This document shows, piece by piece, positions 9,034-58,784 of a stretch of DNA of 64,000 bases. The DNA is taken from contig OZ024740.1 of the NCBI GenBank assembly GCA_964016885.1, positions 282,472,001 through 282,536,000 of the forward strand. Direction: 5' to 3'. Position 1 is the first letter of the stretch; each line of letters opens with the position of its first letter. A model generated the notes under the pieces. It did no database searches, was not told where the DNA came from, and saw only the letters and a program-made list of their open reading frames with translations. This stretch comes from Eledone cirrhosa (Eukaryota). A program made the position numbers and the translations under genes.

Positions 9034-9500
9034 AAAAACATATACGTTAGTTAGGACTTATAAACTTGATTTACAGCCAGACGGAATCCCTAGTTAATTT
9101 CTTCCAATAATTTTCTTAAGTTATCTCGCATATCAGTGCTTATTCATCAAGATTATTTATATTCAGCTATCTTGCGTTGTTAGATGTAATGGTAAAGGCG
9201 ATGTTTCCCAAAGGGAGTTTAATAAGTCTACAATATAACCTGATTTGTCATGATCATACTCACTACGTATTTTCTGACATAAATCTTTATATAATTTCAA
9301 TTATGGAATTATCTCCTTTGTCTTTCTTAACAAGAATTAGTCATTAAAGATTTTGTTTATAATTTTCATTATGGATGTAATTAATAAATCTATGTTGACT
9401 CCTTATAACTGTTTGTTTTTCACGAAAGCATCAGTAAGTCATTCATTTCCGTTCATTCAATCAAGAGATACTCCAAGAACTACAAAAAATAAACTCTAAT

Positions 9501-10058
9501 TTGTCAATACTCACCAACAAACTAAACTCTACAAGTGAAGAAACAATCCCCAAATACACATCCGATGAAATCAACGACAATATCAACAACTTATGTGAAA
9601 CAATCAAAACATACCTGAATAACAACACAAATCCTATCCAAGCGAACGAAAATACACATGACACTAATACACTTACAACTCACCAAATAAAAAACAATTT
9701 AATACCACAATGGTACACATCTCTTAAAAACAGGAAATTCTCCTTTTGGAAGATGATACAAAACAATAACAAAGCGGAGATCTATGAAAAATGGATCAAC
9801 TCTTCCCCATTAATCATCCCCCGAAAACTACAAATTAAATCCATCCCAAACGAACCAGAGACACAAAGACAACTCAGGGAAAGAATGGCCCTTGATAACA
9901 TAAAGACCGAAATAGAACTCCTTAAATTGAGAGCCCAAGCAAATGAAGATAGGATCAAATCAATCGACGATGAGATTAATCAAGCAATTATCAATAAAAC
10001 CAAAGACACCACCCTAGAAAATATTTTAAAACTATATAGACAATTATTAAATATATAA
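9501..10058 (+). pseudogene. 185-codon open frame, probably a retroelement ORF fragment (unclassified)
   Basis: Non-repetitive, A/C-skewed stop-free frame with helical or coiled-coil character (WYTSLKNRKFSFW...YEKW...IIPRKL...EIELLKLR); no recognised catalytic motif. Confidence 0.35.
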
Positions 10059-17954: not shown

Positions 17955-18017
<63 letters not shown>

Positions 18018-18023
<6 letters not shown>

Positions 18024-18614
18024 GTGGTGTTCTGAAATAGCGATATATATATGAATGTATATATAGTGTATTTTGAAATACACTGTATGATTAATTAAAA
18101 GCATTTTGAAGACCATACGCAATTGTTTTAAAGTAGTGACAATGTCACTTACTTCTATTTTCAGCAAATAATGGGAGATAAGCTGACAGAGCTCTGTTTC
18201 GTACTTGTTGGTACTTATCAAAGCTCAGTACTCCTCCTGTCTGCTGAAAATTATGAATGTTGGATTCTTATAGAATTCCAGTAATAATCAGGAACTGATT
18301 ATATACATTCATATATATATCGCTATTTTAGAGCACCAATTCTAATTTTCAATTTCTTCTGGACCGGCGAACGCTCTGTATAATCAGTTCCTGATTATTA
18401 CTGGAATTCTGTAACAATCCAACAATCATAATTTTCAGCAGACAGGAGGAGTGCTGAGTTTTGATAAGTACCAACAAGTACGAAACAGAGCTCTGTCATC
18501 TTATCTCCCCTTGTTTGCTGAAAATAGAAGTAACTGACATTGTCACTACTTTAAAACAATAGCGTAAGGTCTTCAAATGCTTTTAATTAAGCATACAGTG
18601 TATTGCAAAATACA

Positions 18615-18616
<2 letters not shown>
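18018..18616. mobile_element. HHR-bearing non-coding repeat family B, inverted pair
   Basis: Antisense arm with HHR 18179-18227 and sense arm with HHR 18455-18503; flanked by (TA)n. Confidence 0.85.
18179..18227 (-). ncRNA. Type I hammerhead ribozyme, U3-A8 core (family B)
   Basis: UGAGCU-UUGAUAA-GUAC.caacaa.GUAC-GAAAC-AGAGCUCU-GUC-AGCUUA. Confidence 0.8.
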
Positions 18617-24439: not shown

Positions 24440-26303
24440 CACCGTGTAACATATTTTTTGTTCCCCGGTTCTAAGTGTCATTTCATGGTTTGTTATATCC
24501 CATTATTATTGCAGCAAAGAGTTACGGCTCTTTATGGTCTGAAGTCAAATCCCGCCGAGGTTAACTTTGCCTTTCATGCTTACGGGGTCGATAAAATAAA
24601 GTACCAGTAATACACTGGGATAATTGCTGGCCTTGTGCCAAAAGTAGAAACAATTATTATAAAAAAAACACTATTATTTAATCAGAAGTTTGGGTTTGTG
24701 GTCAGGGGTTTGATATTTCGAAATTTTCATATTTTTCAAGAAAAAACACATTTTTTTTAGATTTATCAGTTCATATAATTAAATCAACAGAGTATATATT
24801 TATTTTATTACACAAACTTATCAAAAGCAAACAAGTAAAAACAAATAACACTTATAAAGCAACTTATACACGTCAGAAATGACTGGATTTCCTGGATTTG
24901 CGGTTGTAGTCGAGGTCGCATTCCCGCACTAGCCCCCAGATATAGTCCCCCATCATATTTTCATTGTAGTGGCCCTGGTACCTCTGCTTTATCTCTTTCA
25001 CATCTTGGTGGAATCGTTCGCCTTGTTCTTCTGAGTAGGCGCCCATATTGTCCTTGAATTTTTCCAGGGGAGCGTCCAGCATATGGAGTTTAAGCGACAT
25101 CCTGCATCCCATGGCGCCAAAAGGCTTTATCAGATCCTGCACCAGTAGCTGGTAGTTCTCAGCTCTGTAGTTGCCCAGGAAGCCCTTAACTCCCTTGAAA
25201 CAGTTCCATGCTGTTCTCTCAATCCTATTGAGCTTATTGGAGAACTCGGTAGACTCAAACACCTTCTTTATCTGATGTCCAACAAAAATTCCATCTTTGA
25301 TTTTGGCCTCAGATAACTTGGGGAAGAACTCAAGAAGGTACTTCAAAGCGGCTGATTCTTGGTTGAGAGTCTTCACAAACTGCTTCATCAACCCCAACTT
25401 AATGTGCAGTGGCGGCATAAGCACAATCCTGGGATCAACCAGTGGCTCCCACATGACATTCCGGGTTCCAACTACAAATTCTGTTCGTTGCACCCAGTTC
25501 TTTCTTTTGTAGTGGTCAGAGGTGGCTCTGCTGTCCCAAAGGCAGAGGAAGCATTGGAATTTGATAAAGCCCCCTTGGAGTCCGAGCATGAAAGCCACCA
25601 TCTTGAAGTCTCCAATGATTTCCCAATTGTACTGGTTTTATTGCACACTGTAGTAATCTTCCTTGAGGCAGACTTAATGAGCTAGGGGCAGTGTCGGGAA
25701 CTTGTTTCCATTGTGGAGGAGGACAGCCTTCAAACTTGTGGTGGAGCTGTCTATAAATAGCCGCCACTCCTTGGGCACAAACGGCACCCCAATAACGTCA
25801 AACAGTCCAGGCACGTCATGGCAGAAACAGAGGCCATCCCTAAGAGTGTAAAAGCCTGAGAAAGGTTCGTGTCGACTTCTCTGACTTGTTACACTTCCTC
25901 CTTGACCAAGTTCCACTGCTTCATCCTGGAGACGAATGTTTAAAACACAACTTACCCCTTATTCAGGGTTCGAAAATCCAGTATCAATAAATCTCTTTAA
26001 TCCACTTTTTAACAATTTTATACTTTATTGCACTTTTATAATTTTCTTTAGGTATTACTCTTTATTTTTTATAATTTTAATTTAACCTGAAACATATAAA
26101 AAAAATCATTTAATATAGGCAAATTAAACTTACATACCACGTAAAATCCAGCATACAAATAATTCTAGTGAATAGCTCAGAATTTTTACAAACCCAAACT
26201 TTTAACTGTTTAATAGCACTTTTTTTTTATTTGGGACCTAAGCAACACAAAAAAGTGATTACAAGCCAGGAACAGAGAAAGAATTTGTTTTTGTTATATT
26301 GTG
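24440..26303 (-). mobile_element. Chapaev3-type (CMC) DNA transposon, internally deleted, with transposase remnant at 24873-25930
   Basis: WRLFIDSS..SLKAVLLHNGN, LGLQGG..K..CFLCLWDSR, PPLHIKLGLMKQFVK, SEEQGERFHQD motifs; CAC...GTG termini with 3 bp TTA duplication (24437-24439, 26304-26306); SINE inserted at ~24505-24660. Confidence 0.75.
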
Positions 26304-34539: not shown

Positions 34540-35240
34540 AATTCGGGATGTTTGTTTACAAACAAACCGAGCATTATAATAAATGTTCAGTAAATCCGTA
34601 CGTGCATATATATATGTGTGCATGTCTGTATATATATATATACATACTACTGTATGTCTGTACACATATATGTATGTACGTATACATACTTATATTTAGG
34701 TAACAGCCGTACTAAGAGTGAGAAATGAAATTTCGTTTTATTTTTTTCCATTTATCGTTTCCGGTGCGCCCGGCCAATTAACTTACTCGATATGCAAATT
34801 AGGCTGCTCAGCCGTTAATATGCATAAGGAAAGTATATACTTTCAGACGTTCAATCATCTGGCAGGAAGGTATACGGTGCTGACGATAGCTAATAAGCTT
34901 GAAACTAGTTCATCGTTCCTTTGTCAGTGTTGAACAAAAGGGCAACGATGGTTGCTAAACACTGTACGGTTTAATTCGGGATGTTTGTTTACAAACAAAC
35001 CGAGCATTATAATAAATGTTCGGCATATACGTGCATATATATATGTGTGCATGTATGTATATATATATACATACTACTGTACGTCTGTATACATATATGT
35101 ATGTACGTATACATACTTATATTTAAGTAACAGCCGTACTAAGAGTGAGAAATGAAATTTCGTTTCATTTTTTCCATTTATTGTTTTCGGTGCGCCCGGC
35201 CGTTTAACTCACTCGATATATGTATGTACGTATACATACT
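34540..35240 (+). mobile_element. HHR-bearing tandem repeat family F (~430 nt unit, ~1.6 copies)
   Basis: attcgggatgtttg at 34541 and 34974; actaagagtgagaaatg at 34711 and 35138; no ORF. Confidence 0.85.
34874..34916 (+). ncRNA. Minimal type I hammerhead (family F)
   Basis: ACGGUG-CUGACGA-uAGCU.aaua.AGCUu-GAAAC-UA-GUU-CAUCGU. Confidence 0.8.
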
Positions 35241-46087: not shown

Positions 46088-46132
<45 letters not shown>

Positions 46133-46137
<5 letters not shown>

Positions 46138-46588
46138 TATGTTGCAATACACTGTATGCAACGGGAGATAAGCTGACAGAGCTCTGTTTCGTTTTTTTTT
46201 TTGTTGGTACTTATCAAAGCTCACTACTATCCCTGTTTGCTATTTCAGAGCACCAATTCTAATTTTCAATTTCTGCTGGGCCGGTGACCTCTCTGTATAA
46301 TCAGTTCCTGATTATTACTGGAATTCTATAAGAATCCAACACACATAATTTTCATCAAACAGGAGGAGTAGTGAGCTTTGATAAGTACCAAAAAGTACGA
46401 AACAGAACTCTGTCAGTTTATCTCCCCTGTTTGCTGAAAATTTAAATAAGTGACATTGTCACTATTTTAAAACAATAGCGTATGGTCTTCAAAATGGTTT
46501 TAATTAAGCATACAGTGTATTTCAAAATACACTATATATACATTCATATATATATATCGCTATTTCAGAACACCAATTCTAATTTTAT
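46133..46588. mobile_element. Family B HHR repeat: inverted head plus just over one sense monomer
   Basis: HHR at 46372-46420 (+) and damaged copy at 46169-46223 (-); gctatttcaga.caccaattctaatttt at both ends of the sense unit. Confidence 0.85.
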
Positions 46589-51049: not shown

Positions 51050-51605
51050 TAAAATTAGAATTAGTGCTCTGAAATAGCGATATATATATGAATGTATATG
51101 TAGTGTATTTTGCAATAGACTGTATGCTTAATTAAAAGCATTTCGAAGACATTACGCTATTGTTTTAGAGTAGTGACAGTCTCACTTACTTTAATTTTCA
51201 GAAAACAGGGGAGATAAAACTGACAGAGTTCTTTTTCGCATTTTTTGGTGCTTATCAAAGCTAAGTATTCCGCCTGTTTGCTGAAAATCATGAATGTTTG
51301 ATTCTTATAGAATTCTAGTAATAATCAGGAATGATTATGCAGAGCGGTTACCGGTCAAGCAGAAATTAAAAATTAGAATTGGTGCTCTGAAATAGCGATA
51401 TATATATGAATGTATATATAGTGTATTTTGAAATACACTGTATGCTTAATTAAAAGAATTTCGAAGACCTTACGCTATTGTTTTAGAGTAGCGACAGTCT
51501 CACTTACTTTAATTTTCAGCAAACAGGGGAGATAAAACTGACAGAGCCCTGTTTCGCACTTTTTGGTGCTTATCAAAGCTAAGTACTCCGCCTGTTATAC
51601 ATTCA
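51050..51605 (-). mobile_element. Family B HHR repeat, tandem (period ~318)
   Basis: HHRs at ~51216-51264 and ~51534-51582; helix II is GCAC/GUGC in the second. Confidence 0.85.
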
Positions 51606-53970: not shown

Positions 53971-54324
53971 AAGTGTGTGTGTGTGTGTGTGTGTAAGTGT
54001 GTGTGTGTGTGTGCATGTGTGTGAGCAAGTTTTCACCACACTGTTAGAAATAATGAATAAAAGAATTTGGAATTGCCCCTGTAGATTTTAAGAAGATTTA
54101 TTTCCATTAATTTAACCAGACTGTAAAAGAATGAAGACAAAAAATATGAAGAAAATCGTAAACAAAGCGTCTACGATTATATTATTTACGCCGAATGAAA
54201 GGAGAAGTATCTGATGTTTCAGGTTGATCCCTTTTGAAAGATGGAAAGTGTTAGGATGATGCTAAGTTGTCTGCCCTCTGTTTTGTTATCACACACAGAT
54301 TTTATATATATATATATATATATA

Positions 54325-55088
54325 TAAATGTATATATAGTGTATTTTGCAATACACTGTATGCTTAATTAAAAGCATTTTGAAGACCATACCCTATTACT
54401 TTAAAGTAGCGACAATGTCGCTTACTTAATTTTGCAGCAGACAAGGGGAGATAAGCTGACAGAGCTGTGTTTCGTACTTTTTGGTACTTATCAAAGCTCA
54501 CTATTCTCCCTGTTTGCTGAAAATTATGTGTGTTTGATTCTTATAGAATTCCAGTAATAATAAGTACCAAAACGTACGAAACAGAGCTATATCAGCTTAT
54601 CTACCCTTGTTTGCTGAAAATTTAAGTAAGCGACATTGTCGCTACTTTAAAACAATAGCGTATGGTCTTCAAAATGCTTTTAATTAAGCATACAGTGTAT
54701 TGCAAAATACACTATATATACACTCATATATATATATATATCGCTATTTCAGAGCACCAATTCTAATTTTCAATTCCTGCTGGACCGGCGACCGCTCTGT
54801 ATAATCAGTTCCTGATTATTACTGGAATTCTATAAGAATCAAACACACATAATTTTCAGCAAACAGGGATAGTAGTGAGCTTTGATAAGTACCTAAAAGT
54901 ACGAAACAGAGCTCTGTCAGCTTATCTCCCCTTGTTTGCTGAAAACGTAAGTAAGTGACATTGTGGCTACTTTAAAACAATAGCGTATGGTCTTCAAAAT
55001 GCTTTTAATTAAGCATACAGTGTATTGCAAAATACACTATATATACATTCATATATATATCGCTATTTCAGAGCACCAATTCTAATTT

Positions 55089-55089
<1 letters not shown>
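54325..55089. mobile_element. Family B HHR repeat: inverted arm plus ~1.6 tandem sense monomers (period 325)
   Basis: GAAAC cores at 54578 and 54903; antisense HHR at 54452-54500. Confidence 0.88.
54876..54924 (+). ncRNA. Type I hammerhead ribozyme, U3-A8 core (family B)
   Basis: UGAGCU-UUGAUAA-GUAC.cuaaaa.GUAC-GAAAC-AGAGCUCU-GUC-AGCUUA; helix I extended by UUUUCAGCAAACAGGG / CCCUUGUUUGCUGAAAA. Confidence 0.85.
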
Positions 55090-55122
<33 letters not shown>

Positions 55123-55681: not shown

Positions 55682-55719
<38 letters not shown>

Positions 55720-56151
55720 CGAAGGAAATGTGGTAAGGAACCAGGTGGACCATAACGCACCAAAGTACTCAATACTTGAGGTAGTAGAGTGGGTAATAGG
55801 AACCAGTAAGACCCCGACAGCTGAGCTCAAGCCGTTTCGACGGCTAATTCTGGACTAAATGAAAATTTATCCTGGTATTTAAATAGCCGATCTTCTCAAG
55901 GGGTAATTCCATATATGGTCAAAGTGATTGTCAAAAATCAGTAGTAATTCTGTGGTTGCAAATTAGTAGGGGAGATGGTGGCTAAACCTGCCAGTAGGAG
56001 AAAGAGGGGAGGGGGTGGAGTAGACCCAATCAAGCGTTGGTAGTGCCAGCTACAGCTGAGCATGAGGTCAAAGAAGATAGGTCAAAGGAGGGGGAGGAAG
56101 TCGGAACGGTAGGTAGAACAATGGGGGGTAGAAATAGGAAAGAAAAAAAAG

Positions 56152-57565
56152 TTCGACATAGAGAGCTACTATGCTTCAATCACCTTACCGCTACTTACTG
56201 CCGCCTTGGACTTCGCCGAAACACTCGTGCCCATCACCGACCAGGAAAGAAAAATCATCCTCCACGCCAGGAAGACAGTCTTACTCTTTGACGACTCTAA
56301 ATGGATAAAAAGAGCTCCCGACTCACCCTTCGACGTCAGCATGGGCGCCACGGATTCGGCGGAGGTCACTGATCTTATAGGATTATTCCTAATAGCCAAA
56401 CTCACTGATATGTTTCCTGCATTCGGTGGTGGATTGTACCGTGATGATGGGCTCCTTGCCCTTAAAGGGTACAACCCCAGTAGTACAGATCGGGTCCGGA
56501 AACAATTTATCAGATTCTTCCGCGACTGGGGATTTAAAATAAATAGCCCTACAAACGTCCCTGACCCGAGTAAACTTCCTGGACGTAACCCTCGACCTCG
56601 AAAACGACCTGTACTACCCATACAGGAAACCTAATGCCAATCTGCACTACATCCACCGCCGATCAAACCATCCTAGGAACATCACAAACAACCTGGTCAA
56701 AAACATCTCCCTCCGCATATCCCGTTTGTCAGCTAATGAGCGGATATTCGATGAACATGCGCCTTATTACAACCAGGCCCTCAAGCGGAGTGGTTTCCGG
56801 GAGGAAATATCCTACTGTCCAGCTCCCATTAGCGGAACCAGCAGGAGACACCGCCGCTCACGCAATGTAACATGGTTCAATCCTCCCCACAACGCAGAGG
56901 TGACTACTCCCATCGGGAAACTATTCTTTAGGCTCATTGAAAAACACTTCCCATTACAACACCGCTACCACAACATAATTAACAAAAATACCATCAAACT
57001 CTCTTACAGCACTACACCAAACTTCGCACAATACATCGTCTCCTCTAACAACAAAAAACTCAACCCCGATGGCAGAAATAACCTAAATAGCAGTGGAGAA
57101 CCGACCAGGAGGTGTAACTGCCCGGATAGATCTATTTGCCCACTCGACAATAGATGCAGAGACCGTAATGTGATCTACCAGTGCAACGTGAGGACGGATA
57201 CCTCCAACAAAGCCTATATAGGATTTACCGCATGTGACTTCAAGACCCGGCTATACCAACATAGACATACCTTCCGAAACCCGGCCCGGCGTCACGCCAC
57301 TACACTTTCGGGCCACATATGGGACCTCAAGGACAACAACATCACCTATGATCTCACTTGGAGATTACTGTCCAGAGCCAATTCTTACACGGGAGGACGC
57401 CGTCCGTGCAATTTATGCTCGGAGGAAACTTTACAAATGCTGTTTTCGACGGACCAACTCCTAAACAAGAAAGATGAACTGGTTACTGCATGTAAACATA
57501 GATTGCGTAGGACTTACCTCGCCCTCAAACCCCATAATGACCCGGGGGGTAGACTAGGGCTATAA
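56152..57565 (+). pseudogene. Penelope-like RT and C-terminal GIY-YIG endonuclease, 5'-truncated, one frameshift near 56555
   Basis: FDIESYYASI, FDVSMGATDSAEVTDLIG, GLYRDDGL, VNFLDVTL, SNHP, VTWFNPP, CNC(x5)CPL(x3)C, VIYQ..(x)..YIG.T..FK.R..QH, CNLC.EE. Confidence 0.9.
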
Positions 57566-58655
57566 CACCCCACTTGCCGATTTTGCAATGGGTAACCCCT
57601 GCTTGCCAAGGAAGACGTAAGATCTTCTTTGTATTCTTTTATCGCTTCCTTTATTTCCTTCCCCCCTCTCTCCTTTGTCCTTCTACCCCAGCTCTTCTCC
57701 TTTGTCGGCGTCTTTTCTCGCCCACCCGAGGCTGCCCTTTGGCCCCATGTAGCCTTAGTACCCCCACCACCCCCTCCCCTAGTCTATGATAGATTTGGCG
57801 GACTCCGCCCTTTATAGCAGTTGGCTTAGACCCCGGATACTTGCCCCCTTTTTCCGACCGCTCCCACTATTCTCTGTGCCCTCTATATTTCTTAGTGGCA
57901 CTTATGCCTTATTTTTTCGTTTCAGTATTTCTTGCTTCGCTTTTCTTCTGGGCGGGGTGGATTCTGAATTTATTTTTCCGTATTCTACCTTTATTTCGTA
58001 CGAACTTTCATGTAGCTTGTTTTAGATCTTTTAGAGTTAGCATTAGTATATATTTTTCTCGGGACTCAGAATTATTATCTCGTACAAGTTCACTTTGCTG
58101 CACTGGGTCGTTGCTGGCCCGGGATGGAAACCTTTATTGTTTATTTCGTGGTAGTCTCTTTAGTATTTTGGCCCCTTTTGTTGACCCGTCACCGTATCAT
58201 TTACGTACTTATACCTCCTAAAAGGGTCCTTGCCTAATCCGTCCCACCTAGTTCTTTTACTTATTTCCTTATTTATTTATTTATTTATTTATTTACTTCT
58301 TTCTTTCTTTATTTTATTCTCGCCTAACAATAGCCTGACACCTAGGTCGTAGAATTTAATTTACTTTACTTTTTTCTTTACACTTATTTGCTTTTCTTCA
58401 CTCTCAGTATTTTTTCTTTCCTATTTCTACCCCCATTGTTCTACCTAACGTTCCGACTTCCTCCCCCTCCCCCTCCCCTGTATCTTCTTTGACCTCATGC
58501 CCAGCTGTAGCTGGCACTACCAACGCTTGATTGGGTCTACTCCACCCCCTCCCCTCTTTCTCCTACTGGCAGGTTTAGCCACCATCTCCCCTACTAATTT
58601 GCAACCACAGAATTACTACTGATTTTTGACAATCACTTTGACCATATATGGAATT

Positions 58656-58749
58656 ACCCCTTGAGAAGATCGGCTATTTAAATACCAGGATAAATTTTCA
58701 TTTAGTCCAGAATTAGCCGTCGAAACGGCTTGAGCTCAGCTGTCGGGGT
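58656..58749 (+). ncRNA. Type I hammerhead ribozyme in the pLTR, U3-A8 core (family A); identical inverted copy at 55811-55904
   Basis: ACCCC-UUGAGAA-GA(U)CGGCUA...UAGCCGUC-GAAAC-GGCU.ugagcuc.AGCU-GUC-GGGGU; predicted cleavage after C58744. Confidence 0.8.
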
Positions 58750-58784
58750 CTTACTGGTTCCTATATATATATATATATATATAT

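Follow-up and report, generated by a model that had tools for sequence, protein, structure and literature searches.

Background

Metazoan non-LTR retrozymes have been described as non-coding repeats of 150-450 bp and low GC content, with one type I hammerhead ribozyme per unit, which occur in tandem copies, as dispersed monomers and in arrays, in genomes that also contain PLEs (PMC7229834; Li 2026, bioRxiv 10.64898/2026.07.22.740005). The units of the mussel and axolotl families measure 350-390 and 330-350 nt, respectively; in the same account RtcB circularises the retrozymes of both animals, and in most circles of metazoan retrozymes a free ribozyme is predicted (PMC7229834). Cleavage was reported for one of nine predicted retrozyme dimers (Li 2026). 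Satellite hammerheads of newt and axolotl reside in repeats of about 330 nt, have a palindromic helix III loop and a weak stem, and cleave in a dimer-dependent manner (PMC7229834).

PLEs are reported to insert as partial tandems, with an inverted 5'-truncated copy and a 30-40-bp tail at one end, into (TA)n targets (Craig 2021, PMC8557442), the tail of Penelope measuring 31 bp (Arkhipova 2013, PMC3846280). Their pLTRs carry a hammerhead near the 3' end, in Schistosoma with a U3-A8 core described as a natural variant, and a circle model for PLEs was offered tentatively in the same study (Cervera 2014, PMC4209133); a later survey calls the role of the hammerhead in PLEs unclear (Craig 2021). Non-coding derivatives such as MRC1 of Chlamydomonas, head-to-tail multicopy elements made in trans, generally match an autonomous family at their 3' end and belong to clades mostly without canonical hammerheads (Craig 2021). 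The link between retrozymes and PLE enzymes has previously been based on co-occurrence and pLTR phylogeny.

Here we report a 319-nt repeat family of Eledone cirrhosa, first noticed in a 64,000-nt stretch of contig OZ024740.1 (the whole stretch of DNA analysed, hereafter the window). In the sequence features open to testing the family agrees with a non-LTR retrozyme, and it does not qualify as an autonomous PLE; our best reading, to which we assign a probability of about 0.65, is a non-LTR retrozyme that PLE enzymes mobilise by copying a circular RNA. With the metazoan retrozymes described in the sources above it shares, at the level of DNA, a non-coding unit within the size range given there, one type I hammerhead per unit, a low GC content (35%), the occurrence as tandem copies, dispersed monomers and arrays, and a genome that also contains PLEs; its unit length is near that of the mussel and axolotl families. 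It differs from them in consisting mostly of dispersed insertions of one to two units, which have inverted arms, carry a tail on one side and occupy a TA target, and in a core pair that switches between U3:A8 and C3:G8 within the family. With PLEs and their pLTRs, as characterised in the papers cited, it shares the partial tandems, the inverted copy, the 30-40-bp tail, the (TA)n target, a hammerhead near the 3' end and the U3-A8 core of the Schistosoma elements; unlike them, it has no RT or GIY-YIG frame between pLTRs, the whole element being one repeat unit, and the pLTRs of those PLE families that were sampled in the genome do not resemble this unit in sequence. Like MRC1 it is non-coding, multicopy and arranged head-to-tail; in contrast to derivatives of that type, as Craig 2021 describes them, it conserves its ribozyme, and we found no partner matching it among the PLE loci sampled. 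Elements of this kind have thus been described before, and the gain is mechanistic evidence rather than a new class: the family offers unusually clear evidence of a PLE footprint, it provides an insertion-level argument for both the PLE-enzyme link and a circular template, and a 319-nt substrate with natural variants suits tests of both ideas. In the main texts of the open literature consulted, we found no end-pairing or read-through statistics for any retrozyme family.

Results and discussion

Anatomy of the repeat and its insertions in the window

The four loci singled out in the original prediction belong, as stated there, to one repeat (BLAST E values from 1e-57 to 0) and are also matched by a profile search. 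Comparison of the units at 54325-55089 gives a core period of 319 nt; the head-to-tail repetition stands and the proposed period of 325 does not, the upstream unit having six extra TA bases. The unit has a GC content of 0.35 and is indeed ORF-less, its longest ATG frame in 54560-55089 spanning 34 aa. Contrary to the first description, 54325-55089 is not a direct tandem throughout: the left third is an inverted minus-strand arm, head-to-head with a plus arm of 1.6 units (54560-55089). Inverted arms occur at three of the four window loci, whose features are as follows (unit positions in the text are counted from window position 54765).

18017..18303, minus strand: second insertion, tailed arm with an intact hammerhead, core at 18221
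18311..18616, plus strand: second insertion, tail-less arm spanning a unit junction
46112..46241, minus strand: third insertion, inverted arm with an internal deletion
46239..46586, plus strand: third insertion, tailed arm 28 nt longer than one unit, with its hammerhead core at 46378
51051..51596, minus strand: fourth insertion, one arm only, tailed and 1.7 units long, both repeats belonging to the GCAC/GUGC subfamily
54303..54323: (TA)n target run, left flank
54324..54564, minus strand: inverted, 5'-truncated, tail-less arm, head-to-head with the plus arm
54560..54770, plus strand: upstream 5'-truncated unit of the plus arm, seamlessly joined to the next unit
54771..55089, plus strand: full 319-nt unit, last of the plus arm, with the tailed (T-type) 3' end TTCTAATTTT
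54853..54945, plus strand: type I hammerhead whose helix I is extended; UUGAUAA core box at 54882-54888, helix II GUAC/GUAC, GAAA at 54903
54999..55052, plus strand: cluster of conserved 3' hairpins, up to the internal (I-type) 3' end CATTCAT
55053..55089, plus strand: tail of about 35 nt, at one insertion end only
55090..55105: (TA)n target run, right flank

Both GAAAC motifs reported for the locus, at 54578 and 54903, are present; only the second lies in an intact ribozyme. The hammerhead at 54578 is 5'-truncated and mutated, lacks the first core box and has AUC in place of GUC, and the locus therefore has a single intact ribozyme on the plus strand, besides that of the minus arm, whose core runs from 54494 to 54458 and which has one mismatch in helix III. 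Of the 44 columns that are diagnostic of subfamilies, just one is found past unit position 232, and the 3' hairpin cluster is a likely enzyme-recognition region. No match to the consensus patterns of internal A and B boxes, as a Pol III SINE such as Schistosoma Sm-alpha would have, was found on either strand; internal T runs are present.

Six window ORFs gave no Pfam match, among them open frames of 254 aa (24873-25637, minus strand) and 206 aa (9438-10058, plus strand), which are probably transposon fragments. Among the 150 of 257 Rfam matches listed for the window there were solely spurious microRNA-like hairpins.

Structure and conservation of the hammerhead

The type I hammerhead is predicted to cut between GUC and AGCUUA, that is after 54918, equivalent to unit position 155, where the original prediction had placed the cleavage. 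The palindrome of helix III (ACAGAGCUCUGU), the distal stem of helix I (16 bp) and the helix II variant GCAC/GUGC at about 51556-51569 were likewise recovered, and one hammerhead per unit holds across the family, truncated end units carrying partial ribozymes. A point absent from the earlier description is the core box UUGAUAA, with a U3:A8 pair, instead of the canonical CUGAUGA. The local fold has a z score of -7.2, none of 200 shuffles being as stable; the sole Rfam match, to Hammerhead_HH9, is below threshold, with 19.4 bits where the gathering score is 52.

In five subfamilies the ribozyme is preserved through double changes, the core pair included (U3:A8 versus C3:G8). Helix II occurs in four versions (GUAC/GUAC, GCAC/GUGC, GCAU/AUGC and UCGC/GCGU). 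Helix III is palindromic in the forms CAGAGCUCUG, CAAGGCCUUG and CAGGGCCCUG and is also found as CAGAGAUCUG and CAGACUG; the distal stem of helix I shows changes on both sides. The 3:8 pair of 254 full hammerheads, arrays excluded, is U-A in 213, C-G in 28, mixed in five and other or gapped in eight; because most C-G cases among these were selected by a motif containing both changes, the unbiased figure is that of the first 100 of 884 degenerate matches, with 85 U-A, 14 C-G, one C-A and no U-G. Three runs of one sample, seemingly genomic, pointed through their loose ends to the C3:G8 subfamilies.

For covariation, the window copy was aligned with 10 random intact-core copies per subfamily. In this alignment 93.7% of cells are paired, against 38-49% in slid controls, and 16 of 33 pairs show a change on both sides. 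The observed value was reached by 19 of 500 shuffles for double-change pairs and by 121 of 500 for pair types; about five lineages underlie these counts, and the two changes of the core represent one event on one branch. In copies taken without ribozyme-motif selection, the nine core positions deviate from the commonest letter of their subfamily in 15 of 1139 cases, against 1136 of 34319 elsewhere. As far as its pattern of substitutions tells, the hammerhead is maintained under selection in an element that has no ORF.

Insertion footprint

We compiled 214 distinct insertions, selected by best matches or exact motifs and hence not a random sample: 125 have two head-to-head arms, 64 have one arm, 24 are complex and one is of another kind. 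Among the 125, tailed and tail-less arms are combined in 79, two tailed arms in nine and two tail-less arms in two, one end being non-standard in the remaining 35; the tailed/tail-less combination thus accounts for 79 of the 90 insertions with two standard ends, where 44.7 would be expected. The two 3' end points are fixed and lie about 35 nt apart: of 370 arm 3' ends, 174 are tailed, 137 are internal and one is at the cut site, and a TA run comes after 129 of the 174 tailed, 75 of the 137 internal and 8 of the 59 other ends. An internal (AT)5 run was considered as a target-annealing patch and rejected, since the most diverged subfamily lacks the run and still fixes its internal end at CATTCAT, with a tail of about 35 nt.

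The copies had been thought to start at different points of the unit, as circular permutations would. This is not so; in 68 loci selected by the ribozyme motif the 3' ends fall at the two fixed points and the 5' ends alone vary, a pattern of 5' truncation. Together with the partial tandem, the inverted 5'-truncated arm, the tail at one end and the microsatellite target, this is a PLE-type footprint, and the autonomous coding PLEs of the genome show the same two-end pattern with longer tails. An LTR-plus-internal-region layout was found in none of the 214 insertions. As it inserts exactly like PLEs, the 319-nt element is best read as a PLE-dependent passenger.

Search for a coding partner

The case set against the retrozyme reading at the outset was that most copies might be pLTR debris attached to a coding PLE. 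We found something else: searched with the family profile, 116 PLE loci (46 of Hydra type and 70 with GIY-YIG matches, a small sample of 91,625 and 10,597 candidates, respectively) contain free-standing copies only, with no unit attached to a coding PLE, and the source of the enzymes is consequently inferred from the footprint alone. PLE coding matches lie within 600 nt of 6 of 95 free 5' ends (259 insertions), and one of the 95 adjoins, on the same strand, an ORF (L154:104-1760) with a DKG motif and a cysteine linker, which we take to be Neptune-like. A remnant inverted arm separates this ORF from the unit, an arrangement that both a template switch and a later deletion would fit. The family of the L154 ORF ends in TTCTAAT, as does the tailed end of the 319-nt unit, and another Neptune-like family shares UUGAUAA, the GCAU/AUGC helix II and TTCAT before the TA run; we regard this motif sharing and the L154 junction as weak leads to a partner.

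The same junction, together with an insertion anatomy identical to that of PLEs and the fact that the PLE families of the genome were sampled only in part, could be taken to mean that the copies are 5'-truncated pLTR debris of a further autonomous PLE, much as Xenopus retrozymes are derived from pLTRs in the account of Li 2026. However, what lies upstream of a unit is another unit, seamlessly joined (183 of 185 junctions, and 1,362 exact junctions genome-wide), all 30 loci selected by the 3' motif are ORF-less, and the remnant arm at L154 fits a later deletion. We consider this explanation largely refuted and the least probable of those discussed here, although the unit may descend from a lost pLTR.

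The PLE nearest at hand, at 55719-58764 of the window, has the CxCX5C linker of the Hydra clade. It is 5'-truncated and frameshifted (frames 56113-56634 and 56543-57565), has an inverted tailed arm with a 77-nt tail, and carries a hammerhead at 58661-58744 with a U3:A8 core, a GAGCUC loop and a long helix II. As a parent of the unit it was rejected, there being no significant similarity between the two (best E value 0.18).

The Hydra-clade load of the genome is very large, with 91,625 first-look candidates (sampled as L101-L146). Many near-identical open frames of 714 aa were seen, in addition to families of 719 and 788 aa. Full-length copies of the 714-aa family (L102-L144) run seamlessly from hammerhead to tail to ORF start, and one of them (L131) starts at about the predicted cut site.

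Template of the copies

Copies of the 319-nt unit run across the predicted cut site. Among unselected arms that reach it, 62 of 64 read past; the first pass is read through in 279 of 289 cases and the second in 38 of 50. Of 347 5' ends, four fall no further than 2 nt from the cut (unit positions 153-157), where an average 5-nt bin holds 5.4. A cleaved linear monomer was rejected as template, as it would stop copies at unit position 155 and no 5' pile-up occurs there. Counting joins within 25 nt of register, 183 of 185 unit junctions are seamless. Two or more consecutive complete ribozymes, an arrangement that serves as a criterion for retrozymes, occur in 30 of 347 arms and in a 28-ribozyme array; 54325-55089 has one complete ribozyme on its plus strand.

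Repeats and inverted arms of the same insertion agree in subfamily in 208 of 211 assignable pairs, where chance would give 0.33. Distances within insertions are 0.048-0.055, against 0.074 to other insertions of the same subfamily, and rare alleles are shared in 54 of 532 and 21 of 272 comparisons within insertions as opposed to 132 of 10522 between them, about six to eight times more frequently. Both arms of an insertion evidently come from one template lineage.

One alternative is self-priming on an antisense template, as proposed for Penelope (Arkhipova 2013, PMC3846280): inverted arms would arise by self-priming, the endonuclease would resolve the two fixed ends, and the sense-strand ribozyme would act in a different step. 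This would account for cut-site read-through without a ligated template, and head-to-head arms with short central overlaps are common. In its simplest form, the fold-back copying of a tailed arm as a single cDNA, it fails in the 20 of 77 tailed/tail-less pairs in which neither arm contains the other, and we rejected that form; these pairs suggest instead that both arms were likely primed on RNA. End resolution could rescue the more elaborate version, yet a selected sense-strand ribozyme in an ORF-less element would be left unexplained, and we think self-priming improbable.

A second possibility is that a PLE-dependent passenger is copied from a linear, mostly uncleaved multimeric transcript, the ribozyme just trimming the read-through 5' end. 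Arrays able to supply multimeric RNA do exist, the monomer fold is predicted to be inactive (see below), the stop rate grows with arm length, arms rarely exceed two units, and second-pass stops cluster at unit positions 150-175. This clustering also fits stalling at a strong stem, however, and stops do not pile up at the nucleotide of the cut. The model requires that RNAs escape cutting although they contain at least two ribozymes that are intact and dimer-competent, such as those held by the 30 arms above, and arrays occur at few loci, whereas wrapped arms are present in all five subfamilies. We consider a linear multimer unlikely as the general template, if less so than self-priming. Since second-pass stops are somewhat more frequent around the cut and the stem that lies behind (of 50 cases, 5 at unit positions 150-160 and 7 at 161-165), a minority of cut linear templates may have been used.

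For an ORF-less element that retains its ribozyme and is nonetheless copied across the cut site, cutting followed by re-ligation is the simplest account. The retrozyme label and reverse transcription of a circular or multimeric RNA, both of which formed part of the original prediction, are supported by copies that pass the cut site, by units joined without a seam, by arms that exceed one unit and by the selected ribozyme; the circular permutation from which it argued plays no part in this. In the retrozyme reading that we prefer, tandem transcripts of the repeat would self-cleave as dimers and the monomer would be ligated into a 319-nt circle, transcription, cleavage and ligation being steps that we infer. 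A borrowed PLE reverse transcriptase and endonuclease would then copy the circle into (TA)n runs of the genome, presumably from two priming sites separated by about 35 nt, one used from each side of the target break.

Predicted folding of monomer and dimer

In folding predictions 227 of 241 intact-core copies favour a monomer fold that blocks the ribozyme, in which the helix III strand pairs with that of helix I and with the first part of the core; in one subfamily this blocking helix is retained by a double change (7/51 rows). Relative to two monomers, an open-core dimer with intermolecular helix III gains 4.6-9.3 kcal/mol in stability in four subfamilies; the fifth, most diverged one shows no such gain (9/25). 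A lone ribozyme is thus predicted to lock into an inactive helix and a pair to fold actively through the helix III palindrome, so that multimers could cut while circles stay closed. As folding programs ignore tertiary contacts of the core, this gate is a lead rather than a result.

The predicted self-blocking differs from most metazoan retrozyme circles, as those are presented in PMC7229834. The newt and axolotl satellites of the same source resemble the 319-nt unit in repeat length and in the palindromic loop of helix III, and one subfamily has a U.U at the helix II base that is reminiscent of HHR_Amex2. Dimer-dependent cleavage is described for those satellites, whereas dimer opening is a fold prediction here; helix III of the 319-nt unit could form 4 bp alone, and the barrier in the monomer is a predicted alternative helix instead of a weak stem.

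A more specific form of the retrozyme reading, which we offer tentatively and consider rather doubtful as a whole, is a self-gated circle, off as a monomer and on as a pair, whose genomic copies would result from rolling-circle reverse transcription by a PLE enzyme priming twice, about 35 nt apart. If this were true, the family would be population-scale evidence that the partial tandems and one-sided tails of PLEs come from a circular template, and a Neptune-like element would be the carrier of the self-gated circle.

Genome-wide abundance and arrays

The 3.0-Gb genome contains 3,186 exact matches to the 3' 28-mer, 1,362 exact junction 27-mers, 884 matches to the ribozyme 18-mer and 86 to a 33-mer spanning the cut site; reversed-motif controls gave none. 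A single copy in 37 arbitrary 10-kb stretches extrapolates to about 8,000 loci (95% range 205-45,112), and the cautious estimate is a few thousand loci.

Local arrays of the unit were seen at L237:512-9740 (C14), at L239 and on C1 near 82.39 Mb. The C14 array, with its 28 ribozymes, has a higher-order periodicity of 6 and 12 units (2.5 differences at lag 12, compared with 6.0 at lag 1), suggesting that it grew locally once inserted, and it retains the inverted arm and tail of a single insertion.

Other hammerheads and insertions in the region

The window holds four insertions of the family in 37 kb (18017-55089), against one in 370 kb of arbitrary stretches, and looks like a hotspot for TA-targeting elements. 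A U3:A8 core was found in four otherwise dissimilar families of the genome, namely the 319-nt repeat, one Hydra and two Neptune-like families (window 54882 and 58661; L361:2205; L368:3903), which suggests repeated switching. Four further hammerhead families with C3:G8 cores lie near TA runs in the window, at 34880 (plus strand), 59063 (minus), 43203 (plus), 49251 (plus), 48724 (minus), 52195 (plus) and 51812 (minus); they are probably the ends of other PLE families.
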